Of a stretch of DNA of 64,000 nt, positions 4,921 through 44,118 are shown in pieces (within the stretch, counting starts at the first letter, position 1; each line of letters opens with the position of its first letter). The translations under genes were made by a program, and so were the position numbers. This DNA is from Escherichia coli (lineage in GTDB: Bacteria; Pseudomonadota; Gammaproteobacteria; Enterobacterales; Enterobacteriaceae), in assembly GCF_024298765.1 (NCBI RefSeq), contig NZ_CP101210.1; one strand, written 5' to 3'. The notes beneath the pieces were generated by a model. The model searched no databases, had not been told where the DNA came from, and was given only the letters and a program-made list of their open reading frames with translations.

Positions 4921-7320
4921 ATGAAGCTAACCGATGCGGATAATGCCGCCGATGGCATTTTTTTCCCCGCCCTTGAGCAAAATATGATGGGCGCGGTGTT
5001 AATTAACGAAAATGATGAAGTGATGTTTTTCAACCCCGCCGCAGAGAAGCTCTGGGGGTACAAACGTGAAGAAGTCATTGGCAATAACATTGATATGCTG
5101 ATTCCGCGGGATTTGCGTCCTGCGCATCCTCAATACATTCGTCACAACCGTGAAGGTGGTAAAGCTCGCGTCGAGGGGATGAGTCGGGAGCTGCAGCTGG
5201 AGAAAAAAGACGGCAGTAAAATCTGGACCCGTTTTGCGCTATCGAAAGTGAGCGCCGAGGGGAAAGTTTATTACCTGGCGCTGGTACGGGATGCCAGCGT
5301 AGAAATGGCGCAAAAAGAACAGACCCGACAATTGATTATTGCCGTTGACCATCTCGACCGACCGGTGATTGTCCTCGATCCGGAACGCCATATTGTGCAG
5401 TGCAATCGCGCATTTACCGAAATGTTTGGTTACTGCATTAACGAAGCCAGCGGTATGCAGCCCGATACACTCCTGAACATTCCAGAATTCCCTGCTGATA
5501 ACCGTATTCGTTTACAGCAGTTGCTATGGAAAACCGCCCGCGATCAGGACGAATTTCTGCTGTTGACGCGCACCGGTGAAAAAATCTGGATTAAAGCCTC
5601 TATCAGCCCGGTTTATGACGTGCTCGCGCATCTGCAGAACCTGGTAATGACATTCTCGGATATCACCGAAGAAAGGCAAATCCGCCAGCTTGAAGGCAAT
5701 ATTCTCGCCGCCATGTGCAGCAGCCCCCCATTTCATGAAATGGGGGAAATCATTTGTCGTAACATCGAATCTGTTCTCAACGAATCGCATGTTTCGCTGT
5801 TCGCGCTGCGCAACGGGATGCCGATACACTGGGCGTCATCTTCGCACGGTGCAGAAGTTCAAAATGCGCAAAGCTGGTCAGCGACCATTCGTCAGCGCGA
5901 TGGCACGCCTGCGGGGATCCTGCAAATTAAAACCTCGTCAGGAGCAGAAACCAGCGCCTTTATCGAACGCGTGGCAGATATCAGCCAGCATATGGCCGCG
6001 CTGGCGCTGGAACAGGAAAAAAGCCGTCAGCATATTGAACAACTCATCCAATTTGATCCGATGACCGGTCTGCCAAATCGCAATAACCTGCACAATTACC
6101 TCGATGACCTGGTCGACAAAGCCGTCTCTCCGGTGGTGTATCTCATCGGTGTTGACCATATTCAGGATGTGATTGATAGCCTTGGCTATGCGTGGACCGA
6201 TCAGGCATTGCTGGAAGTGGTCAATCGCTTTCGTGAAAAACTCAAACCGGATCAGTATCTCTGTCGTATTGAAGGTGCGTCTTTTGTCCTCGTGAGCCTG
6301 GAAAACGATGTCAGTAACATTACCCAGATCGCCGATGAGCTACGGAATGTGGTCAGCAAGCCGATAATGATTGACGATAAACCATTCCCGCTCACCTTGA
6401 GCATTGGCATCAGCTACGACGAGGGTAAAAACCGCGATTACCTGCTCTCCACTGCTCACAATGCAATGGATTTTATTCGCAAAAATGGCGGTAACGGCTG
6501 GCAGTTCTTCAGCCCGGCGATGAACGAAATGGTAAAAGAGCGTTTGGTTTTAGGCGCAGCGCTAAAAGAAGCGATTAGTAATAACCAACTTAAACTGGTT
6601 TATCAGCCGCAAATCTTCGCAGAAACGGGTGAACTGTACGGCATCGAAGCCCTTGCTCGCTGGTACGATCCCCTGCATGGTCATGTGCCCCCTTCACGGT
6701 TTATTCCTCTCGCAGAAGAGATTGGTGAAATCGAAAATATTGGGCGCTGGGTCATCGCGGAAGCTTGCCGTCAGTTAGCAGAATGGCGTAGCCAGAATAT
6801 TCATATCCCGGCGTTATCCGTTAACTTGTCTGCGCTGCACTTTCGCAGTAATCAGCTGCCTAATCAGGTATCTGATGCAATGCACGCCTGGGGTATTGAC
6901 GGCCACCAGCTGACGGTGGAAATCACGGAAAGCATGATGATGGAACACGATACCGAAATCTTTAAGCGCATTCAGATCCTGCGCGATATGGGCATCGGTT
7001 TATCGGTAGATGATTTTGGTACAGGCTTTTCCGGATTATCCCGCTTAGTCAGTCTTCCGGTAACGGAAATCAAAATTGATAAAAGTTTTGTCGATCGTTG
7101 TCTGACCGAAAAACGCATCCTTGCCTTACTCGAAGCCATTACCAGCATTGGGCAAAGCCTCAATTTAACCGTCGTGGCGGAAGGCATCGAAACCAAAGAG
7201 CAATTTGAGATGCTACGCAAGATCCACTGTCGCGTTATTCAGGGATATTTCTTTTCCCGCCCCCTGCCCGCCGAAGAAATTCCAGGCTGGATGAGCAGCG
7301 TGTTACCGCTGAAAATCTGA
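4921..7320 (+). CDS. dosP: Heme-PAS c-di-GMP phosphodiesterase DosP (PAS-GGDEF-EAL)
   Basis: ORF track gives 4897..7320; start moved to the ATG at 4921 (RBS gaggtaa 6 nt upstream), giving the 799-aa product; degenerate GGDEF plus an EAL domain (EAL at EALAR); forms an operon with dosC. Confidence 0.9.
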   Translation: MKLTDADNAADGIFFPALEQNMMGAVLINENDEVMFFNPAAEKLWGYKREEVIGNNIDMLIPRDLRPAHPQYIRHNREGGKARVEGMSRELQLEKKDGSKIWTRFALSKVSAEGKVYYLALVRDASVEMAQKEQTRQLIIAVDHLDRPVIVLDPERHIVQCNRAFTEMFGYCINEASGMQPDTLLNIPEFPADNRIRLQQLLWKTARDQDEFLLLTRTGEKIWIKASISPVYDVLAHLQNLVMTFSDITEERQIRQLEGNILAAMCSSPPFHEMGEIICRNIESVLNESHVSLFALRNGMPIHWASSSHGAEVQNAQSWSATIRQRDGTPAGILQIKTSSGAETSAFIERVADISQHMAALALEQEKSRQHIEQLIQFDPMTGLPNRNNLHNYLDDLVDKAVSPVVYLIGVDHIQDVIDSLGYAWTDQALLEVVNRFREKLKPDQYLCRIEGASFVLVSLENDVSNITQIADELRNVVSKPIMIDDKPFPLTLSIGISYDEGKNRDYLLSTAHNAMDFIRKNGGNGWQFFSPAMNEMVKERLVLGAALKEAISNNQLKLVYQPQIFAETGELYGIEALARWYDPLHGHVPPSRFIPLAEEIGEIENIGRWVIAEACRQLAEWRSQNIHIPALSVNLSALHFRSNQLPNQVSDAMHAWGIDGHQLTVEITESMMMEHDTEIFKRIQILRDMGIGLSVDDFGTGFSGLSRLVSLPVTEIKIDKSFVDRCLTEKRILALLEAITSIGQSLNLTVVAEGIETKEQFEMLRKIHCRVIQGYFFSRPLPAEEIPGWMSSVLPLKI

Positions 7321-7333
7321 TAAATTCCTCTCG

Positions 7334-7352
7334 CCCGCACTCGCGGGTTTTT
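7334..7352 (+). terminator. Rho-independent terminator after dosP
   Basis: Hairpin cccgc-actc-gcggg followed by ttttt, 14 bp after the dosP stop. Confidence 0.75.
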
Positions 7353-7445
7353 ATTTAACGTGACACTGTCACTTAAATACTGTGATTTCCGCTACGTTTA
7401 GTTGGACAACGACAACGCATAGCCATGTCACAACAATCCCTTCTC

Positions 7446-7505
7446 AGCCTGATGTGATTGTGCTGACGCATCAGGCAATCACGCGCCTGACGCGTCATCC
7501 GGCAA
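7446..7505. repeat. REP-like palindromic element(s) in the dosP-osmC spacer
   Basis: Imperfect palindromes cctgatg...catcagg and gcctgacgcgtcatccggca resemble the REP consensus; located where the ddp operon sits in K-12. Confidence 0.5.
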
Positions 7506-7509
7506 CACT

Positions 7510-7941
7510 TTACGATTTCAACTGGTAATCAAGCGTAATTTCAGCTTTCAGTACCTGAGAAACCGGGCATCCTGCTTTTGCTTTCTGGATAATGCCGTCA
7601 AAAGTAGAGGCATCAATACCCGGCACCGCAACTTCGCTTTTCAGTGCGATTTTAGTAATCGCAAAACCGGCATCCACTTTATCCAGCGACACATCTGCGG
7701 TGGTATCAATCGATGTTGGCGTGAATCCCGCTTCCCCCAGCATTAATGAAAGCGCCATTGAGAAACATGCGGCATGCGCTGCGCCAATCAGTTCTTCAGG
7801 GTTGGTTCCTTTTTCGCCTTCAAAACGCGTGTTAAATCCATACGGCTGTTGGTTCAGCACGCCGCTCTCGGTGGATACAGTTCCCTTCCCGCGTTTGATA
7901 TCGCCTTCCCAGTGTGCCTGACCTTTCTTATGGATTGTCAT
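7510..7941 (-). CDS. osmC: Osmotically inducible peroxiredoxin OsmC
   Basis: 143-aa ORF; OsmC/Ohr family; translation recognised. Confidence 0.93.
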   Translation of the reverse strand: MTIHKKGQAHWEGDIKRGKGTVSTESGVLNQQPYGFNTRFEGEKGTNPEELIGAAHAACFSMALSLMLGEAGFTPTSIDTTADVSLDKVDAGFAITKIALKSEVAVPGIDASTFDGIIQKAKAGCPVSQVLKAEITLDYQLKS

Positions 7942-8285
7942 TGTTGCTCTCCTGTGGGCTTAAAAAGGAAATTATAGACTACGTGAGAAACAGCACGAGG
8001 ATAAGCAGGATATTCCGAATAAAATCCGGCGAAAACATTATCTCTGTACTTAAATTAAATTCCCACAATAGATAACAGGAAATATATGACTCAAAAGATA
8101 TTGTATCAATATTAATCGATTCACACCAATAACAATCCCTATCAATATCATAGTGTTAAAATATAAAACTCATCAACCAGGACTAATCTTAACAACGAAG
8201 CGGCAAATATTTGCCATGCTGAATGTGCTTTATAAATCTGCGATCCGTAGCAGACACCATAAATACACAGACACGGAGAATCACT

Positions 8286-12202: not shown

Positions 12203-12875
12203 ATGCGCCTATAAGGCTCTCTTACCAGCCGCGCCCTAACAGGCGCACACGATCTGACATTTGCATCCAACTTCGTTACTTACGGCCCGTAAACGGGCTG
12301 CCCGGATAGGGAATCGATAACTGCTCTCCCATTTTATCCTCTTCAAGCTGGTGCTTTATGTAATCCTGTATCTTCGCCGTGTTCTTACCCACCGTATCGA
12401 CGTAGTACCCTCTGCACCAGAACTCTCTGTTCCTGTATTTGAATTTCAAATCACCAAACTGCTCGTAAAGCATCAGACTGCTTTTCCCTTTCAGATATCC
12501 CATAAAGCCGGATACACTCATTTTGGGCGGGATCTCCACAAGCATATGGATATGATCTGCACAGCATTCAGCTTCAAGAATCCGTACGCTTTTCCACTCA
12601 CACAGCTTTCTCAAAATACTGCCTATTGCTCTACGCTTCTCTCTGTAGAACACTTGTCTTCGGTATTTTGGCGCAAAAACTATGTGATATTTACAGTTCC
12701 ATCGGGTGTGCGCTAAGCTCTTTTCGTTCCCCATTGGGACCCCCTTTTGATTTCTTGTTTGACACTTGCAGTTGCCAGACCGCAAGGTGTTTTAACAAAT
12801 CAAAAGGGGTTTTAATAACTGGCTCAAAGCTGAAAGCTTTCCGGAACCCCCAGCCTAGCTGGGGGTTTTCTGTGC
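12203..12875 (-). mobile_element. IS200 insertion sequence (IS200/IS605 family); boundaries approximate
   Basis: Contains the Y1 (HUH) transposase gene, an RBS-sequestering stem upstream of tnpA, and the left-end hairpin (aaacccccagctaggctgggggtt on the minus strand, + coordinates 12843..12870); ends not mapped to the base. Confidence 0.8.
12276..12734 (-). CDS. tnpA: IS200 transposase TnpA (Y1 HUH transposase)
   Basis: 152-aa product starting MGNEKSLAHTRWNCKYHIVFAPKYRR with the HIHMLVEIPP (HuH) motif; recognised as essentially the Salmonella/E. coli IS200 TnpA. Confidence 0.9.
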   Translation of the reverse strand: MGNEKSLAHTRWNCKYHIVFAPKYRRQVFYREKRRAIGSILRKLCEWKSVRILEAECCADHIHMLVEIPPKMSVSGFMGYLKGKSSLMLYEQFGDLKFKYRNREFWCRGYYVDTVGKNTAKIQDYIKHQLEEDKMGEQLSIPYPGSPFTGRK

Positions 12876-14472: not shown

Positions 14473-17400
14473 TTACGCCTTCTCGATGTTGACTAAGAAC
14501 GCTTTATATTCCGGCGTTTGCGAGTTTGCATCACCGACATTCGGCGTCAGAGTGTTAGCGATATAACCTTTACGCGCGACACCCTCAAAGCCCCAGTGGA
14601 TTGGAATACCCACCGTTTCAACCTGCTGACCGTTTACATTCAGCGGTTTCAGACGGCGCGTTACCACAGCCACCGCGCGGATAAAGCCACGCTTGCTGGA
14701 GACAGTGACACGATCGCCATTGGCAATGCCTTTCGCCGCCGCCAGCGTTTCGCTGATTTCCACAAACTGTTCCGGCTGAGCAATTGCGTTGAGCAATGCG
14801 TGCTTGGTCCAGGTGTGGAAGTGCTCGGTCAGACGATAGGTCGTACCCACATACGGGAACTGCTCTTTTTTACCCATCCGCAGCGCGTCTTGTTCATACA
14901 GACGAACAACCGGGTTAGACACCACGTTCGGATGCAGCGGGTTAGTGCCCAGCGGCGTTTCGATTGGCTCGTAGTGTTCCGGGAACGGACCTTCCGCCAT
15001 TTTGTTGATGGCAAACAGGCGTCCCATCCCTTCCGGCTGCATGATAAACGGCCCGGTTGGCGTACCCGGTGCGGCATTGCCGAAGTCCGGAATATCGTTA
15101 CCCGTCCACTTGCTGCCGTTCCACTGGATCAGCATCCGTTTCGGATCCCACGGTTTACCGTTGATATCCGCCGAAGCACGGTTGTACAGCACGCGACGGT
15201 TGAGCGGCCACGCCCAGGCCCATCCCAGCGTATTCCCCAGACCGGACGGGTCGGAGTTATCGCGGTTAGCCATCTGGTTGCCCTGCTCTGTCCAGCTACC
15301 GGTGTAGATCCAGCAAGAAGATGCGGTTGTACCATCATCACGCAGATGCGCAAAGCTACTCAGCAACTGACCTTTCTTCGCAATCAGCACGCCATTAGCG
15401 TCATAGAGATCTTCCAGCGCATAGCCGTTGTTCTCTTTCGCCACTTCGTCAGATTGCGGTTCGTGCGGCTGCTTGTAGTTCCAGCTCATCTTCATCAGCG
15501 GTTCTACGCCTTTACCACCCTCGGCCTGGTACAGCTCGCGCAGATGATGGTAGATACCCGCCAGAATTTCGCCGTCGTTACGTGCTTCGCCCGGCGCGTC
15601 CTGACCTTTCCAGTGCCACTGCAACCAGCGACCGGAGTTAGCAATAGAACCATCTTCTTCAGCAAAGCAGGTCGAAGGCAGACGGAATACTTCAGTCTGA
15701 ATGGACGCCGGATCGACATCGTTCGACTCGCCGTGGTTCTGCCAGAAGGTAGAGGTTTCAGTCACCAGCGGATCGATAACCACCATGTACTTCAGCTTGC
15801 TCAGGCAGCTCACCACTTTGTTTTTGTCCGGGAAGGACGCAACCGGGTTAAAGCCCTGGCAGAAATAACCGGTGACTTTGCCTTCGTCCATCATGTTGAA
15901 ATACTTGATGACGTCGTAGGTCTGGTCCCACTTCGGCAGCCAGTCGTAGCCCCAGTTGTTCTCTTTTTGCGCGGCATCGCCGTAGAAAGATTTCATCAGG
16001 CTAACGAAGAACTTCGGATAGTTGCTCCAGTAGTTCACCTGATCAGCCAGCGTCGCTTTCGGCGTATTCGCTTCCAGATACGACTGCAAATCAACCTGTT
16101 TTTCTGACGGCAGCGTCAGATAACCCGGCAGGCTGGTTGAGAGCAGACCTAAGTCGGTCAGGCCCTGAATGTTGGAGTGACCACGCAATGCGTTCACGCC
16201 GCCACCGGCCATACCCATGTTACCGAGCAGCAACTGGATCATCGCCATAGTACGGATGTTCTGCGCACCCACGGTGTGCTGCGTCCAGCCCAGCGCGTAC
16301 AGGAAGGTGGTTGTGCGATCCGGTGCGCTGGTGGAGGCCAGCACTTCACACACTTTCAGGAAGTCGGCTTTTGGCGTACCGCAGATGTTTTCTACTACGT
16401 CCGGCGTGTAGCGGGAAACGTGCGCTTTCAGCAGGTTCCACACACAGCGCGGATGAGTCAGTGTTTCATCGCGTTTCGCATAGCCGTTTTCATCGAACTG
16501 ATAGTTCCAGGACGATTTATCGTATTGCCGTTTTTCAGCGTCGTAGCCGCTGAACAGACCGTCTTCGAAAGCAAAATCATCACGCACCAGCAGGCTGGCG
16601 TTGGTGTAATGCTTAACGTATTCGGCGTTGATTTTGTTGTTTTCGATCAGGTAGCGCAAAACGCCAGACAGGAACGTAATGTCCGTACCGGAACGAATAG
16701 GTGCGTAAATATCCGCCACAGAAGCGGTACGCGTAAAACGGGGATCGACAACGATCAAGGTTGCATCGTTGTTGTTTTTCGCTTCCATCGCCCAGCGGAA
16801 ACCGACGGGATGCGCTTCAGCAGCGTTACCGCCCATCACCATTACGACGTTAGCGTTTTTGATATCCACCCAGTGGTTGGTCATCGCACCGCGACCAAAT
16901 GTTGGAGCAAGACTTGCTACCGTTGGTCCGTGTCAGACGCGCGCCTGGTTGTCTACCGCCAGCATCCCGAGGGAGCGGGCAAATTTTTGAGTCAGCATCC
17001 CGGTTTCGTTGCTGGCACCGGAGGCACACAGCATACCGGTAGAAAGCCAACGGTTTACCGTTACGCCCTGCTCGTTCTTTTCAATAAAGTTAGCGTCACG
17101 GTCAGCTTTCATCAGCTTCGCAATACGGGAGAATGCTTCTTCCCAGCTAATGCGCTGCCATTTGTCAGAACCTGGCGCACGATATTCCGGGTAGCGCAGA
17201 CGGTTTTCGCTGTTGACGTAATCCAGCAAACCGGCCCCTTTCGGGCACAGCGCACCACGGCTTACCGGATGATCCGGGTCACCTTCAATGTGATAAATCG
17301 CTTCTCTGGCGTTTTTCGCGCCATCACCCAGGCTATACATCAATAGCCCGCAACCTACGGAACAGTATGTGCAGGTGTTACGGATCTCTTTCGCGCGTAA

Positions 17401-33430: not shown

Positions 33431-33982
33431 CTATCTTCTTAGCGATGTCTTTCTGGTATCACATTGGATCGGTGCAATTATTTTTCCTTTAATACCCATT
33501 ATGTTAAGAAATTCAGAAACAGCTGTAATCTCATTGGTTTTTTCATTCGTCTTGATCTTCCAAGGAATCTGACTGTGCATTATTGAGAACACACTAATAA
33601 CGTGAATCGCTCCCTTGCGACGACTCTTGTCATAAGAGTACCGGAGCGTTTTTCCATCAATTGCAATGACGTCTTTATCATCTGAAGAATGGCAGTCAAG
33701 CATCCAGTTAATAAAGCACTCATGAAATTTTGCAGGACTGATACAGGATACAACTCTGGCAATGGTATCGTGAACAGGAATACCATTATCAAAATCACCA
33801 TATTGCTTCAAAAAATCGAGATGTGTTTCCCCAAAATCCTCTATATCTTCCCAGCCTTCTGCACCCGAAATAACGGCACAAATAGTCAACAGTAGAATAT
33901 CCGATAATTTATGTTCCACTTTCCAGGCTTGTCTGTAATCGGGGATAATAGAAATATGTTCCATCAATTTTTTAAGTTCCAT
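33431..33982 (-). pseudogene. ydcC: Truncated H-repeat-associated (ISAs1-family transposase-like) gene, N-terminal fragment
   Basis: 183-aa ORF matching only the N-terminal half of the roughly 378-aa H-repeat protein; the remainder is missing where the DGC gene begins. Confidence 0.7.
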
Positions 33983-34222: not shown

Positions 34223-34552
34223 ATGGCTGAACACGATATTACGCCAGAAGTCGCCATTTCCAAAACACAGCGCCGCTATAAAGTCGGCTATGTCAGAGCC
34301 CGCCACATAAACAGCAAAACCTACATGACCACGTACTACTCACGACACCCCAGCCTGAACCTTAAGGGCGACTGGCTGAAAGAGGCCGGATTTGATACCG
34401 GACGGGGTGTCACGGTGAAGATTTCGGAGGGGTGCCTGACCATCATCGCTGACAGTGACGAGGTGCAGGAACTGCGGGAGGAACTTTATCAGGTTAAACA
34501 GGTGGTTAAGGGGATGCGGAACGGGATGTTTAGTGTGCTGAACGAGAATTAA
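34223..34552 (+). CDS. SymE-family type I toxin-like protein (AbrB/SpoVT-fold)
   Basis: 109-aa ORF with RBS agagg; core LKGDWLKEAGFDTGRGVTVKISEGCLTIIA closely parallels E. coli SymE as I recall it ([30 protein letters not shown]). Confidence 0.65.
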   Translation: MAEHDITPEVAISKTQRRYKVGYVRARHINSKTYMTTYYSRHPSLNLKGDWLKEAGFDTGRGVTVKISEGCLTIIADSDEVQELREELYQVKQVVKGMRNGMFSVLNEN

Positions 34553-34602: not shown

Positions 34603-34905
34603 CTAAAAAGGTAATAATCCTCTAATAGGAGAAAATTTTGTAATATCAATACCTTGTAATTTAAAGTAATTAAAAGCATCTTCTATATTGGAAAACGCAC
34701 TAATTTCTTCAGTTGCATAATCTTCGAACACTTCCATTTTATTTTCTGGTATTTTGAAAAAATAGGTATTGTATTTTTCATCCTGTTTTTTAATGGCATA
34801 TTGGAAAAAATAACTTTCACCATTTATTTCCTTTATCTCATCAAAACCTCTAACCTTACCATTCTCTATAGCAACAATTAATTTTTCAATAGACAAATCA
34901 ACCAT
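34603..34905 (-). CDS. Putative Rhs toxin immunity protein
   Basis: 100-aa acidic, AT-rich ORF; start overlaps the toxin-tip stop by 8 nt; strong RBS (gagga). Confidence 0.6.
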   Translation of the reverse strand: MVDLSIEKLIVAIENGKVRGFDEIKEINGESYFFQYAIKKQDEKYNTYFFKIPENKMEVFEDYATEEISAFSNIEDAFNYFKLQGIDITKFSPIRGLLPF

Positions 34906-35312
34906 CTATATCTATCCTCACCATTGTCCCATCAGAACGTTTAATATTTATATGAGGCAAAGAACCATGCCCTGTGCCTTTATGGTCATCATGACCATAT
35001 ACACGACCAGTATTAGAATCAATAGGGTAACCTTTCCTATAACGGACAGTACCATCTCTTTTCTTAAATTGTTCCATCTTATGTTTTTTTCTAATACCGG
35101 CGGCATCCTGCGAACCGATCCCTCTTACTTTTTGAGCATCAGGAAAGGCCTCCATCAATAAATCATGGGCTTCCTGTTTTGATTTAACTGTGACAACGGT
35201 TCCTTGAGGCCCCTCTCGCAAAGATTTCGCGTTTTTGGAACATGCAGTCAGTCCCAGCGGATCGATCCAAGAGAGCGGATTCGGCGCGTATTGGTAGAGG
35301 TTTATTCCCCCC
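34898..35312 (-). CDS. Rhs C-terminal segment (core end INLYQYAPNPLSWIDPLGL plus variable toxin tip), out of frame with the Rhs core ORF
   Basis: Reading frame B on the minus strand gives GGINLYQYAPNPLSWIDPLGL followed by about 117 aa of His-rich variable tip (YGHDDHKGTGHGSLPH); it is joined to the core only if the G7 run at 35307..35313 is read as G6. Confidence 0.65.
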
Positions 35313-38300
35313 CGCTAACCCTATCGGATCCGTTACCATGAACCGCCCGACATCCGGATCATAGTACCTGTGCAGATTGTAATGCAGTCCCGTTTCCCTG
35401 TCGAGGTACTGTCCCTGGTAGCGCAGGTTCTGCGCCACCCCGCCGTGGTCCTTCTCCTGTATCGTGTTACCCCAGACCTGATACCCCGTCTCCCACACGA
35501 TTTTCCCGTCACTGTCCGTCATCTCTTCCGGCGCGCCGTTCACATCCGTGTGAAAATACAGTATCCGGTTCGGGCCCTCTTTGCCCGCCTTATCCACCCG
35601 CGCCAGCGGTTCATAACTCCCCGGGTCCCTGTAGATGTACAGGCTGTCTGTTCCCTCCGGCCTGCTCTCCTGCGCCAGCCGCATTCCGTCCCATAAAAAT
35701 GCCGTCCGGTTGTACGGTTTACCGTCAGGGCTGATGTGCTGTTTTTCCGTCCGCCTCCCCAGCGCATCGTACACATACCGGTACGTTCCCCGCGCTGTCG
35801 TCACTTCCACCATCCGGTGTTCCGCATCATAACGGTAACTCTGCGTGCCGCTCCGCCCCTCCTTTTCCACCGCACGGCCAAATTCGTCGTAACGGTAGTG
35901 CACACCACGGTAAGACATCAGCCGGTTGAACGGCACCACGCTGTTTTCTGCCGTGGCCCTTTCCCCCGCGCGCCGCCCCAGCAGGTTTCCCGCCGCGTCG
36001 TACTGCCAGCTCGCCAGATACCCCTCATCCTCCGAGCGGCACGCCGTGATGCGCCCCGTGGGGTCGTAGAAGTAATCCGTTTCCCCCCGCCGGCTGTGCC
36101 GCGTCTTCAGCAGTTCATCCTCGCCACTGTAGCTGTACTGCCGGTCCGTGAACGTCTCCGGTACCACCCCGCGCATCCCGCTGTATGTCTCCCTGCGCTT
36201 CAGCCGCCCGGCGGGGTCGTAAAGCTGCCGCGTGCTCAGTCGCCCCTGACTTCTGAGCACTTCACGGTGCAGGGCGTCACGAGTGAACTCGCTGATGACC
36301 TCCCGGTCCAGATTTATCTGCTGGAGATGGCCGCTGCCGTAGTACAGATGACGCTGCGTTCTGCCGTCCGGAAAGGTGGTGGCTGTCCGGTTGCTGAGTT
36401 CATCGTACTGATGGGTCAGGACGCCCTGCGCCGTCTCCTCAGTCAGCATCCGCCCCAGTCTGTCGTAACTGAAACGGATAATCTCCGGTGCGTCTGTTTC
36501 CCCGGCATCCGACCGTCGGCGGCGGATTTCCAGTAACTGGTCTGCCGCATCATGGACGTATTCCGTACGGCTATCGGCTGTCTCCTTTGCCGTGAGCCGG
36601 CCCGCCGCATCACGTGCCAGCCGGTGGCGGATTTCACCGCCCCGGTCCCCGGTGAACACCACTTCCGTGACCGCGTTCAGCGCGTTGTAGCGGTACGTCT
36701 GGCGGCAGCCGTCCGGATTTATCTGCTCCGCCAGACGGTCCAGCACGTCATGGCGGAACCGGTAGCTTTCTCCGTTCTCGTTTGTCAGCGTGACCAGACG
36801 CCCGTAAGCATCGTACCCGAACGCCGTCCTGCGCCCCGTCGCGTCTGTCCGGCTGCGCACCCGGCCCTGCCCGTCCCGCTGCCAGCGCGTTATCCTCCCC
36901 ATCGGGCTGGTGTACTTCACCAGCCTGCCCGCCGCGTCCGACTGGTAATTCACCGTGCGGCCGTCCGCCAGTATCACCTCCGTCAGGTGGCCGCTGTCGT
37001 CATACCCGTAGCGCGTGCTGTGGCTCTGCGCGTCTGTCATCCGTATCAGCCGCGTGCGTTCGTCGTAGAACCAGGCCGTCTGCGAGCCGGAACAGTCCGT
37101 GTGCCGCATGAGCTGCCCGTCTTCGTTCCACTGAAGGTATTTATTCCCCCCGCGCGCATCGGTTATCTGCACCACCTGGCCGTGGCGGTCATACTGATAC
37201 CGGGTGTTCTGCTGCAGCGGGTCGGTCACCGCAAGAAGATTGCCGCGTTCATCGTACTCACAGCACCAGCTGTTCCCCGCCGCGTCCACCTCCGTTTCCG
37301 GCTGGTGCCACACCGGGTGCCACTGTGTCTGTGCCACCCGCCCCAGCGGGTCGTGCGTCTCCGTGATATGCCCCTGCCGGTCATACACATAGCGCCATTT
37401 GCCGCCCTGCGCATCGGTCATTCCCAGTAACAGCCGTTCTTCGTCGCTCCAGCGGAACGTCGTCACCTGCCCGGCTTCGTCCTGGTACGCCGTCACCTGA
37501 TTCTGCGCGTCCCACTGATGATAACGCGTGCGCCCCAGCCCGTCCGTCACGCACAGCCTGCGTGACGCCAGGCTCCACGCCAGCCGGTACTGTTCACCGC
37601 TGTCCGTGTGGTGCCCCGTCACCCGCCACGCTGCGTCATCCGGGCCTTCATACCAGCTCCACTGGTAATAATACCCTTCGCCGCCCGGCTGGCGGTGCAG
37701 GGTCATGCAGTGGTTTTCGTCGTAAGCAAACTCGCGCAGCAGGTGTCCCGTGCTGTCGTACACGCCGTTCAGGTCGCCGGCCTCGTCATAGCGGTAACGA
37801 CGCAGCAGTAAAGGAGCCGTCTCAGGGAAATGCTGATAAATCTGTGTCACCCGCCGGGGATGCGCCGCCAGTTCATAATGCAGACGGATGCACGGACGCT
37901 GCTGTTCACCGCTGATTTGCGTGATGCGCCCCAGCTCGTCGTAGTACAGATTCAGACAGTTGCTGTTGCGGTCGCCCAGCATTTTCAGCCGCTGGCGCTG
38001 CGGGTGATGCGGGTCGGCTTCAAACAGAAAAAACTGCCCGTCATCGCTGCTGATAAGCCAGTGCCCCTGCTCACCCCGCCTTACCGCCAGTCCTTCGCCG
38101 GGGCTGTAAAACCCGCTCCCCGGCAGCACGGCCTCCATATCCAGGCGTCGCCCCATGCCCGACACAAAGGTCATGCAGTTTTCGTCAGCAGTACCCGGCG
38201 TGCGCCCGAGGCTGACTTCATACATCACGCTCCAGCCCTGCCCGAACATCCCTTCCGTGCGGTCGTCACGACTGCTGTACACGCGCTGCCAGTCCAGCGG

Positions 38301-39560
38301 AAAGTGGCCCGGCAGACTGAAATCGAAGTCATCGTCATCGGCCAGATATTTGGCTCCGGTGGCGGCATTGACCGGATGCGGAAGGGCACTGATGGCCTTC
38401 TGCGTCATCACCCCCATCCCGACACTGGCAGCAAAACAGGCGATTTTAGAAAGCATTTTGCCCGGGCGAAGAAACATCAGCGCCACGGTTGCCACCAGGG
38501 TTATCTGCGACCTGCCGCTTCTGATATCCCTGACCACCAGTAACGGACCGCCAATGCGGACATCCGGTGACACAAACGCCCCGTTCCCCGGCTCATTCAC
38601 CACCCTGGCCTCGCAGGTGCAGCGTGCCCCGCTGCGTGCCGCCGGCTGGCTGTTGATACGCACATCCCGCGCGCCTTCCGCGATATATTCCGCTGCGGGC
38701 GGTTCATCATCGCCTTTGAACAGATTACTGATGCTGCCAATAACCGCATTCACTCCCTGAAAGGCGGTTTCCAGCATACCGTCCGGACTCAGCAGGTTAA
38801 GGGCCGTTCCCAGGGGGTCATCCAGAAAGGCGGCTTTTTTTTGTGCGAGAAACTGCGTCAGTGAGGAGGGATGTTTATGGCAGTCGATTTTATCGTCAGG
38901 GGTCGGGGTGGAGCCCGGGGCCGCACTGGCCACGGTGGGCTGCCATAGTTCCGACACAAAATGTGTCACGCCATCCACCATTTCAGAACGCCCTTCTTCC
39001 GTACTGAGCTGGTCGTGCAGCGCCCGGGACATCAGCACAGGCCCTGTCACCGGGTTAACCGCCAGGGCTATGGCCCCCGCCATTTCCAGATATTCCCCGG
39101 CCACATCCAGGAACGTTCTGGCATCCTCCTGACGCTGCGCTTCTTCCTGTTCCGCCTTCGCCTGCGCCTCCTGCGCCTCAATGTCCTGCCGCGATGCCGC
39201 AGTCGCCGCGGCCCGCGCGGCAGGTTTGCTGTTGATCCATGTGTCGCCAGAGCCGGTGAGGATGTAACCTTCAATCTGAGGCGGGAAAAGCATATTTGCG
39301 AGGTCTGAACAGACTTCGCTGACCGTGTCTGTCACGCCGGTGTACACCATCGCCACACCCGCCACAAAACCGGTCAGCACGACGGCCGTGCACCCCATCG
39401 TGATCCCCACTGACGCCGCCAGTAACGAGGTTGTGCCGACAATGAGGGCATCAATAACGACATTTGCGGCCACCTCCAGCACCGCCCCCAGCACATCTGC
39501 CATAAACGACGTATGCAGCAGGGCATCACCCTGCCTTGCCGCCCAGAATGCCTCTTCCAT
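35184..39560 (-). CDS. Rhs-family T6SS effector core (prePAAR motif, TM helices, PAAR, YD repeats), as the ORF in the present frame
   Basis: 1458-aa ORF; N-terminus MEEAFWAARQGDALLH matches the prePAAR AARxxDxxxH motif; hydrophobic helices follow; literal PAAR motifs; numerous YD/RHS repeats; core end RYYDPDVGRFMVTDPIGLAGG; after the G-run the frame runs 41 unrelated codons to a stop at 35184. Occupies the K-12 rhsE position by synteny. Confidence 0.85.
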   Translation of the reverse strand: MEEAFWAARQGDALLHTSFMADVLGAVLEVAANVVIDALIVGTTSLLAASVGITMGCTAVVLTGFVAGVAMVYTGVTDTVSEVCSDLANMLFPPQIEGYILTGSGDTWINSKPAARAAATAASRQDIEAQEAQAKAEQEEAQRQEDARTFLDVAGEYLEMAGAIALAVNPVTGPVLMSRALHDQLSTEEGRSEMVDGVTHFVSELWQPTVASAAPGSTPTPDDKIDCHKHPSSLTQFLAQKKAAFLDDPLGTALNLLSPDGMLETAFQGVNAVIGSISNLFKGDDEPPAAEYIAEGARDVRINSQPAARSGARCTCEARVVNEPGNGAFVSPDVRIGGPLLVVRDIRSGRSQITLVATVALMFLRPGKMLSKIACFAASVGMGVMTQKAISALPHPVNAATGAKYLADDDDFDFSLPGHFPLDWQRVYSSRDDRTEGMFGQGWSVMYEVSLGRTPGTADENCMTFVSGMGRRLDMEAVLPGSGFYSPGEGLAVRRGEQGHWLISSDDGQFFLFEADPHHPQRQRLKMLGDRNSNCLNLYYDELGRITQISGEQQRPCIRLHYELAAHPRRVTQIYQHFPETAPLLLRRYRYDEAGDLNGVYDSTGHLLREFAYDENHCMTLHRQPGGEGYYYQWSWYEGPDDAAWRVTGHHTDSGEQYRLAWSLASRRLCVTDGLGRTRYHQWDAQNQVTAYQDEAGQVTTFRWSDEERLLLGMTDAQGGKWRYVYDRQGHITETHDPLGRVAQTQWHPVWHQPETEVDAAGNSWCCEYDERGNLLAVTDPLQQNTRYQYDRHGQVVQITDARGGNKYLQWNEDGQLMRHTDCSGSQTAWFYDERTRLIRMTDAQSHSTRYGYDDSGHLTEVILADGRTVNYQSDAAGRLVKYTSPMGRITRWQRDGQGRVRSRTDATGRRTAFGYDAYGRLVTLTNENGESYRFRHDVLDRLAEQINPDGCRQTYRYNALNAVTEVVFTGDRGGEIRHRLARDAAGRLTAKETADSRTEYVHDAADQLLEIRRRRSDAGETDAPEIIRFSYDRLGRMLTEETAQGVLTHQYDELSNRTATTFPDGRTQRHLYYGSGHLQQINLDREVISEFTRDALHREVLRSQGRLSTRQLYDPAGRLKRRETYSGMRGVVPETFTDRQYSYSGEDELLKTRHSRRGETDYFYDPTGRITACRSEDEGYLASWQYDAAGNLLGRRAGERATAENSVVPFNRLMSYRGVHYRYDEFGRAVEKEGRSGTQSYRYDAEHRMVEVTTARGTYRYVYDALGRRTEKQHISPDGKPYNRTAFLWDGMRLAQESRPEGTDSLYIYRDPGSYEPLARVDKAGKEGPNRILYFHTDVNGAPEEMTDSDGKIVWETGYQVWGNTIQEKDHGGVAQNLRYQGQYLDRETGLHYNLHRYYDPDVGRFMVTDPIGLAGGNKPLPIRAESALLDRSAGTDCMFQKREIFARGASRNRCHS

Positions 39561-39578: not shown

Positions 39579-40031
39579 TTAATTCGTCCCGGCTTCCTGC
39601 CGCATCCTGAAGCGCAGATTCTTTTTAATTTCAGCCCAGCGCGTCATATCTGCCGGGGTCAGCGGTGTGGTTCGGGCGTAGGTGAAGGCCATCATGACCC
39701 GCTCACCCGGCAATACAAATGCCACCTGACACTGGTACACCTGCTCGTTACCCCGGAGAAACTGGCTCTGTATTTCCAGTCCTTCTTCACCGTCATTAAT
39801 CCCCACCCGTGTTACCTGAACGGGCGTGTAGTGAAGATCCTTTACCTGTTTCTCCAGTTTTTTCATTTGCTGTTCAATCTGGGAGGCTAATTCGTCTCCT
39901 TCCTGCATCTGGCCCCGGCTGATAATGAGTGCAGCGTCGGGATCGCTGAGGCGCAGCATATTAATAGTACTGTCCTGAATAATATTCCCGGAAAAAGTTA
40001 CAACAGTTTCATTGAGATAATACTCCGTCAT
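39579..40031 (-). CDS. DUF1795 (Eag-family) effector chaperone
   Basis: 150-aa ORF immediately upstream of the prePAAR Rhs gene; size and position typical of Eag chaperones. Confidence 0.7.
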   Translation of the reverse strand: MTEYYLNETVVTFSGNIIQDSTINMLRLSDPDAALIISRGQMQEGDELASQIEQQMKKLEKQVKDLHYTPVQVTRVGINDGEEGLEIQSQFLRGNEQVYQCQVAFVLPGERVMMAFTYARTTPLTPADMTRWAEIKKNLRFRMRQEAGTN

Positions 40032-40081: not shown

Positions 40082-42076
40082 TTATTTTTTAGTCATGAAG
40101 GCGACATCTATCGCCAATTGAAGGGCTGTTTTTTCCGATGTTCCTGGCGGAAGTATATCTGCCGCCCTGTTATTCATATTTAAATCAAGCTGACCTGATT
40201 GTGTATTTATCTTTCCATTTTCTGTTGCAGTAATATTAAAATTCTTACAGGTTATATTAAATATTCCGTCACTGGTCATTTGCAGGATAGTGTTCCCACA
40301 ACTAAGAATTATGGAATCTCCCGCAGCAAGGCGTAAATTCTGTACGGCCTGAATCGTTTTATTTTGTCCGGCAAGGGAGGTATCATCCATCTGAACTGTA
40401 AGAGAACGTTCCTCACCAATTATCGCTGTTTCTGTTTTATCAATGACTTTAAGGCGATTATTGCCCACCCAGTGGCTTTCATTATTATTTACTTCAATGC
40501 GTTGATCTTTCTCGGCATGCAACCAGATTTCTTCTCCGCCAGTTTTATCCTCAAAACGCAAGGCGTTAGCATTGGTCGGGCCGCCGCCGATAGTGTGGCT
40601 GTAAAACCCGCTTTGCGTCGCTGCGCCCGGTAGTCCCCACGGTGGCATGGTGTCCTGATTGTAGGTACGCCCAACGATTATCGGTAAATCCGGATCACCG
40701 TTTTTGAAATCCACCAGTACTTCCTGACCAATGCGCGGGATCTGAATGCCACCGAATCCTTTACCCGCCCACGGATAACTGACACGGACCCAGCAGGAAC
40801 TATTTTCGTCATTCTTACCGTAACGATCCCAGCCAAACTGAACTTTCACCCGGCCATATTTATCTGTCCAGATTTCCTGCCCTGCCGGGCCGGTGACGAT
40901 GGCGCTCTGCGGGCCTTTAGTGTGGGGTTTGCTCAGGGTTCGTTGTGGGCGGTAAACTTCGCTGGTGGGATGCAGTTCAAAGCTGGTTGAGTAAGAGAAA
41001 TGCTGCTCCTGGCCGCTGTGTTGCGCATTGTCCTGTATAAATAGCGTGGTCTGTACCAGCAGATATTCCCGGTTCACTTCGGCTGTCGGATAGTTTTCCA
41101 GGGTGAAGGTAAAACCTGTCATCAGGGTACGAATATTGCCGCTGCCCTGTACCCGACTACCTGGGCTACGCTGTTCTTCCATGCGAATGCGTGTCAGCAT
41201 TTCACCTTCACTCTTTGTGAAGTAATCTCCCGGCCATTCGTAGTGCTCATATTCAGCAAGGCCGGTTTCACGCGGATTAGCCACGGTGCTCTTCAGCAGT
41301 GAACGCGGCTTCATAAAGTCGAAATCATTCAGCACCCACTGTCCGCTGCGCAGACTTTCATTTGCTGTGATGGTATGGATAAACTCCTTGTCCAGTTTCA
41401 GCCCTTTCTGGTAATAACACACCAGCGGCGAATCTGCGCATGCCTTGTGGACATTAATGGCATCAGCCAGCACTAACGTGTGACTGTTCTCGCTGTGCTC
41501 AAACCACCAGTAGATACCCCACTCCTGCATCAGGCGCTGAACAAAATCGAAATCTGTTTCACCGTACTGCACCTGCCAGGCGCGAGTCGGATAATTTTCC
41601 ACCAGTCGTTTTTCCACTGGCCAGGGGTACTCATCCAGTACCTCATCCAGGATCTCCACCACGTTTTTATTCTGAAACGCTTTGTAGTCACTAGTGTGGG
41701 TCAGTATTTTTAACCACGGTTCGAGCCGCAGTTCATACACCACCGAACGTCCTTGATGACCAGCCACGCGTGCCGCCGTCACCAGCCCGCTGATATAACG
41801 TTTTCCGCCGCCATCCAATTCGATATTGACGCACAGATCTTTGCCCACCATCGGTTTGAGCTGCAGGTTGGCTGCGGGGGAAACATAGCCCAGGTTCAGG
41901 ATGTCAGGAGTTTTTAATTTAATAGAATAAGTAAATAGTTCCCCTACTGTTTCTGTACCCCCTAAGCTTGCAAACAGTAACATTCCATCAGGAACTGCGC
42001 TGCCGCTCAAAGTCACGTTATGTGTACCCGATCCAGTTAGTGCGCCGGATGGATAATCTGTAGCTGCAAAACTCAT
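40082..42076 (-). CDS. vgrG: Type VI secretion spike protein VgrG
   Basis: 664-aa ORF; gp27/gp5-like architecture; directly precedes the Eag-Rhs genes. Confidence 0.85.
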
Positions 42077-42297
42077 AATTAATCCTTTTAACTAGAAATG
42101 GATAAGTGCTAATAAGAAATCTTACAGAGAATAAAATATGCAATATATTCGTAGCTGGCATAAAACATCTCAATACTTATGCGTGCTACTGAAGATACTA
42201 TCAACCATATATGCCTTGAAGAATGCACCGTCATGTTAACCTGGTGGAAACATTCACCTAAAGTACATTAATAAAACTAATAAAATTATTTAATTTG

Positions 42298-42654
42298 TTA
42301 TTTGATATGATTATCATCAAGTCTTAAAATACGTTCTCCGGTTCTAATTATGCTAAAACCATAGTATTCTTTTTTACTTCCGGAAGAGAGCATATATTTC
42401 CCTATATACATAACATCTGAAGATAGCTCACTTATATCAATACATACGGGTTCGAACTGACCTGTCACTCTTTTCAACTTTATTGCATTGCCATATTTAC
42501 CTTCATATAAAACATAATTTGAAATAATATTCCCATCGTCTGGTTTTGAACAAATCTGTCCGTCTTGCAAATATACACTACCGGGTAACAATGGGCGAAC
42601 ATAATCACCAACAGTGCATCCCGACAAAAAGAAAAACAAAAAGAATCTCTTCAT
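42298..42654 (-). CDS. Small lipoprotein of unknown function (candidate immunity protein)
   Basis: 118-aa ORF; signal peptide with lipobox FLSGC; AT-rich; start overlaps the stop of the upstream HExxH gene (ATGA). Confidence 0.6.
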   Translation of the reverse strand: MKRFFLFFFLSGCTVGDYVRPLLPGSVYLQDGQICSKPDDGNIISNYVLYEGKYGNAIKLKRVTGQFEPVCIDISELSSDVMYIGKYMLSSGSKKEYYGFSIIRTGERILRLDDNHIK

Positions 42655-43220
42655 ATGACACCCGCAGGAAATAAATTAAGCACCTTTTTGTATTTTTCCG
42701 ATAGAGTGTTCACTGATTCAGTTGTATCACCTACATAGTTAACATTTGCCAAATCAGCCACCAGTCCATAGTTAATTAATAGCCAATAATCAACAACTAT
42801 AGATGCTTGTTGTTCCATGGAATAAGAAGAAATTGACTGTAAATTAAGATCGTAATGATAATTTGCCGCCCAAGAAAATAAACCACGCAACTTAACTGCA
42901 TACCCTTTCTGATATTGCCAAACATGCATCATTTCATGAATAAACAAGTGAGAAGCACCTGCTACTGTTTCACGATCACCAGGCATTGCTTGCGATGAAT
43001 AATCTGAACTATAAACAGCATCAGGATAATACATTTCCCCGTTTGGGGTCATCGCTGTTCTTTCCCCTTGACCAGGCAAATATTTTTCATTGTGGATCCA
43101 TACCTTGCTATAATCAATTGTATTCTCAAAAATCGATCTGGCCAATGTTAATTCACCAGATGTCATTCTCCTTAATGACATATCCTTTCCCCTGGAAATA
43201 ATATCTTTCAGATAAAACAC
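42651..43220 (-). CDS. Cysteine-free HExxH zincin-like protein (candidate T6SS cargo effector)
   Basis: 189-aa ORF (alternative start at Met14, position 43181); single HEMMH motif within ASHLFIHEMMHVWQYQ; no signal peptide; AT-rich; translationally coupled to the lipoprotein gene. Confidence 0.55.
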   Translation of the reverse strand: MFYLKDIISRGKDMSLRRMTSGELTLARSIFENTIDYSKVWIHNEKYLPGQGERTAMTPNGEMYYPDAVYSSDYSSQAMPGDRETVAGASHLFIHEMMHVWQYQKGYAVKLRGLFSWAANYHYDLNLQSISSYSMEQQASIVVDYWLLINYGLVADLANVNYVGDTTESVNTLSEKYKKVLNLFPAGVI

Positions 43221-44118
43221 AAACGCCCTTTGATGTTCAATATTCCCACTTTATACAGTATTGATGACATCATCTTCATAGAAAATAAAATCAAAGCAAG
43301 TTATCAACGTTTCCCGTTATGATTTCTTAACATTAATTCTCAGCATTTTTATTAATCTATCTTCAATATCAATAACCGATGCAAATGATTACGCAGCTAA
43401 CATAATTCTCATCAATTGATTAATATCTGTAAACGCTACCGCCCCACCCTGATATCTTAATCTGCACATAGCAATCTTAACGTTATGCCCCATACATTAG
43501 TAATGTAAATTAAGAATTCGGAATATATCAAATTCACTTCATAAATTAATATCGGGAATGATATACACATTAATTATATTGAAGTAATGTTTTAAGAGTT
43601 GTAATGACCATGGAACAGGACTAATTCCAGAAACTCCTGTTGGGCAATAGCGCGTTTATCATCCTACATGCCTCTTACATTTTTTAGCCTTTTCTTTAAC
43701 GTCAGCAATTGGCTCATTTAATCAGCAATGGTATTGGTATTTGGCGTATTACCCCTGAAACCCGTCATGTGCTAGCACCTCACTATTCAATGAGCCAACC
43801 ACGCCAGTGTCCACTGCAACCACTGGCGTTCAGAGCGACGAACGAGTGGCGCAAGAGTAGGACTGCCGTCGGGCATCATCAAACCAATAGTGGTTGTTTC
43901 CGTCAAAATTTCATCAGGTTGCTATTTGGTTGCCGGCCGCCTTTATCCCCACATATTTATAGCGGGATTATTTTGCATCGTTACACGATAAAAGGTAGGA
44001 TTCTGCGCCGACAGTTATACCCATAAAGAATAATGGTGAATCTTGTCATCGCCAGGATGAATAAACATTGTTCATGGCAACTTATATGACTTTTTCATTA
44101 AAGCAATCAGGGAGAGCA

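Follow-up and report, generated by a model that had tools for sequence, protein, structure and literature searches.

A stand-alone metallopeptidase of the VgrG2b C-terminal/Tpe family and its lipoprotein partner form a probable type VI secretion effector-immunity pair in a variable island of Escherichia coli

The stretch of DNA analysed here (the window; 64,000 nucleotides of contig NZ_CP101210.1) comes from an Escherichia coli chromosome and, over the region studied, is 100% identical to strain 14EC020 (NZ_CP024138). A variable island with pptA and ansP as its flanks, at the site of the rhsE remnant in K-12, carries on the minus strand, in this order, genes for a putative effector, a putative immunity protein, VgrG, a DcrB-related protein and a PAAR-Rhs protein. 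The first open reading frame reaches its greatest length (42651..43220, minus strand; 189 aa) when read from a GTG at 43220, and encodes 176 aa when read from the ATG at 43181 (42651..43181; RefSeq CDS WP_052263728.1; MSLRRMTSGE...). Because RefSeq and the N-termini of homologues agree on the ATG, the evidence supports this start over the GTG. The stop codon of this gene overlaps the start of a 118-aa open reading frame (42298..42654, minus strand) in an ATGA (GTC ATA TGA / ATG AAG), and 221 bp beyond the 3' end of the latter lies vgrG (40082..42076, minus strand; 664 aa; TIGR03361, E=2e-168), the spike gene that accompanies the pair. An earlier note on this DNA, made from the letters alone, had described two coupled ORFs directly upstream of vgrG on the same strand and in the most AT-rich part of the window; the coordinates are confirmed, and the GC content of 0.348 at 42001-43000 is indeed the lowest 1-kb value of the window.

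Beyond vgrG, the island encodes a DcrB-related (DUF1795/Eag-type) chaperone for the Rhs protein (39579..40031, minus strand; RefSeq annotation, with a Citrobacter counterpart that matches Pfam DcrB) and the PAAR-Rhs protein itself (35184..39560, minus strand), a second effector of the island with YD repeats and an RHS-associated core domain. The DcrB-like gene most plausibly serves this Rhs protein and not the HExxH effector encoded by the first gene; no adaptor gene for the latter is present beside the pair, and no hcp occurs in the window. Upstream of the pair, a non-coding stretch that presumably holds its promoter (43182..43446, minus strand) is confined to pair-carrying genomes, positions 43182-43446 being covered by only 229 of 5,426 complete E. 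coli genomes; the adjoining segment 43447-44118 is common to about 780 genomes, and its distal part, 43964-44118, to 5405 of the 5,426. Promoter and terminator scans around the pair gave nothing better than shuffled sequences, and Rfam returned no match within 42-44 kb. Because the two have been kept together in many genera of enterobacteria, both ORFs are, on comparative grounds, real genes and not chance ORFs.

The product of the first gene has no cysteine and a single HExxH motif (HEMMH, 42924..42938, minus strand, in the context HEMMHVWQYQ), of which about 0.007 would be expected by chance for a protein of its composition. Both features had been pointed out for the 189-aa form and stand; the start implied by that length gives way to the better-supported ATG at 43181. 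Its sequence, and an alignment to the VgrG2b domain that runs from residue 3 onward, suggest that the protein lacks a signal peptide. Neither Pfam (no match at E<=10) nor NCBIfam recognises it. A phmmer comparison with all PDB chains nevertheless gave one match, and one only, to 6H56 (E=2e-20, 76.6 bits; residues 16-151 of the 189-aa ORF), which is the effector domain of Pseudomonas aeruginosa VgrG2b, a domain whose structure has been solved and for which zinc binding has been shown (Wood et al. 2019, PMC6899460; PDB 6H56). In the phmmer alignment the counterpart of HEMMH in VgrG2b is HEMTH, and the Glu of MEQQ falls on that of IEQQ. Residues H82, E83 and H86 of the motif and Glu123 (42813..42815, minus strand; the predicted third zinc ligand), in the numbering of the 176-aa protein, align with H935, E936, H939 and E983 of VgrG2b (positions obtained by counting along the chain), residues that in the crystal structure make up the catalytic triad and the third ligand of the zinc.

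When 33 homologues are aligned, drawn from Citrobacter, Serratia, Pantoea, Yersinia, Enterobacter, Klebsiella and other genera, H82, E83, H86, Q89, E123, Q124 and Q125 prove invariant, so the HExxH motif is conserved in homologues. The AlphaFold2 model built on this alignment (pLDDT 90.4) likewise agrees with the zincin fold that had been proposed: in a Foldseek search of the PDB, 6h56 was the only significant match (E=1e-8, TM 0.63, 31% identity in the structural alignment), and besides it nothing fell below E=1, the non-significant tail consisting of gluzincins. Sequence similarity, an HExxH motif with a downstream Glu, the predicted fold, an envelope-targeted ORF immediately downstream and an association with T6SS genes are thus all found together, and they place the protein, to judge by sequence and model, as a stand-alone gluzincin of the VgrG2b C-terminal/Tpe metallopeptidase effector family. 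One relative (P0073) is fused to PAAR.

Two other affiliations were considered and rejected. The resemblance to DUF4157-type toxin domains, which had been suggested by the context of the motif, is only faint: PF13699 (DUF4157, now 'eCIS core domain') reaches 15 of the 33 relatives, only at E-values of 0.005-0.1, and its HExxH helix, like that of the effector, is followed by a conserved Gln. The effector itself, however, has no match to this profile at E<=10, and none of its 33 relatives has one at E<=0.001, so that filing under PF13699 was rejected and the relationship is remote at best. In the main T6SS cluster of E. coli the corresponding position is taken by a gene for a 242-aa HExxH protein, which BLASTP showed not to be a relative of the effector.

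The second gene encodes a protein with the N-terminus MKRFFLFFFLSGC, in which a lipobox, L-S-G-C (42616..42627, minus strand), can be read from the sequence with Cys13 as the predicted lipid-modified residue, in agreement with the lipobox reading of the earlier note; C35 and C71 are its only further cysteines. The residue at +2 is Thr, the Asp associated with Lol avoidance being absent here and from the +2 position of all 70 lipoprotein relatives (0/70). The protein has no Pfam match, DUF7480 included, and it matches NF045617 of NCBIfam ('putative T6SS immunity periplasmic lipoprotein') with E=2.3e-7 and 30.9 bits, which does not reach the curated cutoff of 43. A word-indexed homologue search retrieved E. 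coli copies only. An exhaustive phmmer search against 1.8 billion representatives returned nothing new except tandem-repeat proteins, which we discarded as spurious, their scores being sums of weak repeats.

More can be learned from gene position. Among ORFs lying directly 3' of effector homologues in 80 species-representative genomes, 70 of 77 from other species carry a lipobox; they encode 108-159 aa, and most overlap the effector stop in an ATGA. Exactly two cysteines occur in the mature part of 64 of these 70 relatives, and a profile built from the 70 with Escherichia excluded finds the lipoprotein of the window (38.5 bits, E=6e-14) with its cysteines aligned. In an alignment of 26 lipoproteins the sole invariant columns are G12, C13, C35 and C71. 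For PA0261, the immunity protein of VgrG2b, a disulfide is required for function. Pfam DUF7480, the domain of SARI_02726, is present in 14 of these 26 aligned relatives, and representatives of both lipoprotein sequence clusters pass the NF045617 cutoff (54 and 105.8 bits). The AlphaFold2 model of the window protein is all-beta (pLDDT 79.7), and its significant fold matches in the AlphaFold database are small lipoproteins from genera in which the effector also occurs (Tatumella, Enterobacter, Klebsiella and Pseudescherichia). Because the similarity is significant yet below threshold, and because the gene position agrees, the lipoprotein is best placed, from these comparisons, as a divergent relative of the NF045617/DUF7480 immunity family and not as a threshold member of it. 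The view of the earlier note that neither protein belongs to a named or described family therefore has to be given up: the effector falls in the VgrG2b C-ter/Tpe family and the lipoprotein beside NF045617/DUF7480, a combination described in PMC6899460 and tested in PMC12992299. Its functional proposal, a periplasm-acting T6SS zincin cargo effector with an exported lipoprotein as immunity protein, is at the same time supported by homology to experimentally characterised pairs.

We surveyed 80 species-level loci for T6SS genes within 6 kb, clustering the neighbours and annotating them via NCBIfam (a tblastn search with the VgrG of the window missed most VgrGs, which are only about 25% identical to it). 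About ten of the 80 loci, from about ten genera, lie in main T6SS clusters with the order tssL-tagL-(hcp)-clpV-effector-immunity-vgrG, and a further arrangement, at 16-18 loci, consists of effector-immunity-hcp units (hcp: TIGR03344, 100 bits) without vgrG nearby. Several loci have two to four immunity genes in tandem. The closest effector homologue outside Escherichia (67% identity) is that of Citrobacter farmeri, where the end of the main cluster reads tssM-tagF-...-vgrG fragment-effector-immunity-vgrG-DcrB-PAAR-Rhs, i.e., the cassette of the window in situ. The effector-immunity-vgrG order recurs with two very different types of VgrG; this, together with the PAAR fusion, makes us favour spike-associated delivery on sequence evidence, with loading into Hcp as the less likely route. 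VgrG-dependent loading stays a putative route, because 54 of the 80 loci are distant from T6SS genes and 16-18 have hcp instead of vgrG downstream. Occurrence mostly away from T6SS genes had been set down in advance as an observation that would speak against the proposal, and this is partly what was found: no T6SS gene lies within 6 kb at 54 of the 80 loci, although about 26 adjoin vgrG, clpV or hcp. The T6SS-distant loci do not overturn the homology, and the orphan pattern is already known from Serratia, in which copies lie in variable islands beside lipoprotein genes and are annotated as Rhs effectors (bioRxiv 10.1101/2024.01.28.577318).

Within E. coli, the pair is present in 230 of 5,426 complete genomes, in all of them on the chromosome, and the N-terminal part of the vgrG type of the window is present in 234, a near-identical distribution. 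In 223 genomes the DNA is unbroken from the vgrG leader through the pair, and in 223 the effector ORF is intact, with its catalytic residues kept and 94-100% identity. Between E. coli variants the immunity protein (89-91.5% identity) diverges faster than the effector (95.5-97%) or VgrG (96-97%). Many carrier strains are of avian, poultry, livestock or clinical origin. The nearest other vgrG (about 80% DNA identity) is part of a complete T6SS cluster next to dkgB that includes tae4-tai4, found in JML285 and in 40EC (NZ_CP070920), the latter of which also has the ansP island. Estimated from identity bands, this main-cluster vgrG accompanies the island in about 57 genomes and is missing from about 168 of the about 225 that carry the island.

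TssF and TssH are core components of the T6SS, and strain 14EC020 appears to lack an apparatus that contains both intact. Of its three candidate sites that we inspected (aspV, dkgB and metV), the aspV island and the dkgB site are devoid of T6SS genes, and in the metV cluster ISEc12 interrupts tssF, tssH is frameshifted and a stop codon lies within a VasL-domain gene; the genome has one vgrG of the window type. Because the related cluster is missing and the metV cluster is disrupted in core tssF and tssH, the module in 14EC020 is probably an orphaned weapon whose immunity has been retained: the toxin presumably cannot be fired, and the immunity gene alone is likely to be of use.

Homology, fold, catalytic residues, pairing and linkage to vgrG together make it highly probable that the pair belongs, as an E. 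coli representative, to the VgrG2b C-terminal/Tpe-Tpi family of T6SS effector-immunity modules. By analogy with the relatives of the pair, the effector would be expected to be toxic in the periplasm, to be neutralised when the immunity protein binds it and to depend on the T6SS. In a strain with a working apparatus, the 176-aa zinc-dependent gluzincin, having no export signal of its own, would leave the cell when the T6SS fires, most likely carried by the spike made from the vgrG that accompanies the pair in E. coli, and would reach the periplasm of a Gram-negative neighbour. If it behaves like VgrG2b, it would there act as a protease that disturbs envelope and division functions and lyses the target cell. 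The periplasmic toxicity of the VgrG2b C-terminal domain requires E936; hydrolysis of peptidoglycan was not seen, and intoxicated cells bleb at midcell (PMC6899460). The translationally coupled 118-aa protein would be exported, would receive its lipid at Cys13 and would probably end up in the outer membrane, so that its beta domain, presumably stabilised by a disulfide, would face the periplasm, where it is expected to bind and block toxin arriving from sister cells.

A possible alternative to spike delivery is that the same effector-immunity pair is loaded in the lumen of the Hcp tube. The effector is small enough to make this conceivable (about 20 kDa), hcp follows the pair immediately at the 16-18 loci without nearby vgrG, and the window pair is unaccompanied by an adaptor gene; however, the window itself contains no hcp, the E. 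coli pair co-distributes with one type of vgrG, the effector-immunity-vgrG order occurs in two unrelated types of cluster, and fusion of the domain to VgrG (in VgrG2b) and to PAAR (in P0073) argues for delivery at the tip (PMC6899460), so that we regard Hcp loading as unlikely, if still worth keeping in view. The module might also serve this lineage independently of the T6SS: it may be kept for its immunity gene alone, as protection from armed relatives, or it may act in addiction or against phages. The state of 14EC020, which lacks a related cluster and has a disrupted second one, would fit such a role, as would the absence of a related main-cluster vgrG from most island-bearing E. coli and the many loci of other species that lie well away from T6SS genes, some of which carry the immunity gene in two to four tandem copies. 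Yet addiction logic fails for an effector that, without an export signal, cannot reach the compartment in which its relatives are toxic. For an anti-phage role, PADLOC gave no match to either protein (E<=1), PHROGs gave none that was meaningful, and the orphan pair of Serratia showed no anti-phage activity (bioRxiv 10.1101/2024.01.28.577318); and if immunity alone mattered, an intact effector with its catalytic residues would not be expected in 223 genomes. We therefore consider T6SS-independent use improbable as an account of the module in this lineage. Retention for immunity alone would agree with the main explanation and does not compete with it.

That the effector acts mainly on eukaryotic cells, as was first proposed for VgrG2b with its microtubule-dependent uptake, seems very improbable. 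VgrG2b is described as trans-kingdom (PMC4453011, as cited in PMC6899460), and the E. coli carriers are often avian or clinical isolates; but a dedicated, tightly coupled gene for a periplasmic immunity protein is the signature of an antibacterial toxin, and the sequence offers no pointer to a host target.

How the immunity protein works may be hinted at by its own conservation. The best-conserved stretch of the immunity family is the tether that follows the lipid cysteine (consensus GC-P-x-x-G-D-R); 45 of 70 relatives have G[D/E] no more than 8 residues from the lipid cysteine, and the window protein reads C-T-V-G-D. Membrane-associated MltC, LolB and RcsF drop in vitro in the presence of the VgrG2b domain, and lipoprotein tethers are suspected to be the target of this toxin family (Wood et al., PMC6899460). 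Because the conserved tether is the very element that Wood et al. suspect the toxin of cutting, it is conceivable, though we hold it to be doubtful, that the immunity lipoprotein acts as a pseudosubstrate whose tether occupies the active site of the effector; if this were true, the pair would show which class of substrate, long sought, the toxin family attacks. A still weaker suggestion is that T6SS-independent use may explain the presence of intact effectors in the roughly three quarters of island-bearing E. coli without a related T6SS.

The present analysis does not point to a new kind of biology: it adds to a known family of T6SS toxins an E. coli representative, carried by about 4% of complete genomes, and it sets right a database name, 'type IV secretion protein Rhs', that misleads. 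Strains that have the island together with a related T6SS, and strains that have lost the T6SS, offer a natural comparison for asking why orphaned weapons and immunity genes persist.

Our literature searches brought up no publication on the pair in E. coli, and its closest points of reference are the systems characterised in other bacteria. The domain was already noted to be encoded as a putative cargo effector in many Enterobacteriaceae, and the VgrG2b-Cter family has been merged with Tpe1-Tpi1 of Acinetobacter baylyi (PMC6899460). With VgrG2b and PA0261 the E. coli pair shares the catalytic domain, the HExxH and Glu ligands and a small envelope-targeted immunity gene directly downstream. In VgrG2b, however, the domain is fused to the spike, whereas in E. 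coli it stands free, as a 176-aa protein whose gene precedes vgrG; and PA0261, the downstream periplasmic protein that neutralises VgrG2b C-ter and requires DsbA to do so, is soluble, whereas the E. coli immunity protein is a predicted lipoprotein, as are the enterobacterial homologues of PA0261, among which SARI_02726 has been located in the outer membrane (PMC6899460). The likeness to Tpe1-Tpi1 (ACIAD0053/0054) lies in membership of the same metallopeptidase effector-immunity family with a periplasm-acting cargo effector, following the placement by Wood et al.; unlike the E. coli lipoprotein, Tpi1 is anchored in the inner membrane by a helix.

A characterised counterpart in organisation is SARI_02727/SARI_02726 of Salmonella enterica subsp. 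arizonae (SPI-20). This too is a stand-alone cargo effector, of the same length class, whose gene overlaps that of a lipoprotein immunity protein, and vgrG follows the pair directly in the same orientation. SARI_02727 is toxic to E. coli when sent to the periplasm, SARI_02726 partly protects against it, and the pair matters in competition (2026, PMC12992299). The two systems differ in sequence (44% identity for the effector and about 19% for the immunity protein) and in setting, the Salmonella pair being located between clpV and vgrG in a main cluster whose VgrG is 24-29% identical to that of the window. [quoted passage not shown]

In several species with related loci, the immunity lipoprotein gene is present in two to four tandem copies behind one effector gene (locus L062, positions 6495-8100, together with loci L028, L058, L054 and L024), which suggests that immunity genes accumulate; an additional effector copy, full or partial, occurs in L049 and L058. 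Effector genes are themselves damaged in some E. coli: a 135-aa effector product (P0011), found on 49 contigs, terminates shortly before the MEQQ zinc-ligand motif, and in H49 (NZ_CP015229) the effector copy is disrupted near the position equivalent to 43057 of the window, with the immunity gene region still present.

The 937-bp AT-rich spacer that lies ahead of ansP (window 43182-44118) is layered by its distribution among genomes. Almost every E. coli has its ansP-proximal part (43964-44118; 5405 of 5426 complete genomes), about 780 genomes have the longer segment 43447-44118, and the rest of the spacer is restricted to 229 genomes, all of which carry the effector-lipoprotein pair. Searches of this spacer returned no Rfam match and no convincing open reading frame.

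In strain 14EC020 (NZ_CP024138.1), whose genome is identical to the window, a T6SS cluster lies outside the window at the metV tRNA site (1040166-1069012; L095) and is annotated as degenerate: according to this annotation, ISEc12 splits tssF, tssH carries a frameshift, and an internal stop lies in the gene with the VasL domain. We inspected two other sites in this genome, the aspV island and the site beside dkgB, and T6SS genes were absent at both.

The slot immediately 5' of vgrG can hold a pair that differs from that of the window, as it does in the main T6SS clusters of E. coli JML285 and 40EC and of Citrobacter farmeri (L085 21354-22450, minus strand; L087 21055-22151, minus strand; L089 5876-6975, plus strand). 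Here the two genes overlap, and they encode a protein of 242-244 aa that bears a HEIGH motif and one of 122-123 aa that has a Sec-type signal peptide. Sequence searches of Pfam, NCBIfam and the PDB with the larger protein gave no matches, and BLAST detected no similarity between it and the window effector; the two proteins may constitute an uncharacterised zincin effector-immunity pair.

Because the Rhs protein of the window stops about 43 residues past its DPIGL core-end motif (35184-35320, minus strand), it is without a toxin tip of normal size, and its toxin end looks truncated or rearranged. Two small overlapping ORFs of 85 and 100 aa follow the Rhs gene (34603-35155, minus strand), neither with a match in NCBIfam.

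Two ordinary Rfam matches in the window are STnc490 (12744-12867, minus strand), which adjoins an IS200 transposase gene, and a SECIS element within fdnG (16880-16938, minus strand). A further match, to the Hfq-binding RNA isrA (34294-34422, minus strand; 118.8 bits), is antisense to the 5' part of a SymE-family toxin gene (34223-34552, plus strand), and an ISAs1 transposase remnant (33432-33982) adjoins this locus. The arrangement looks like that of a type I toxin plus its antisense RNA.
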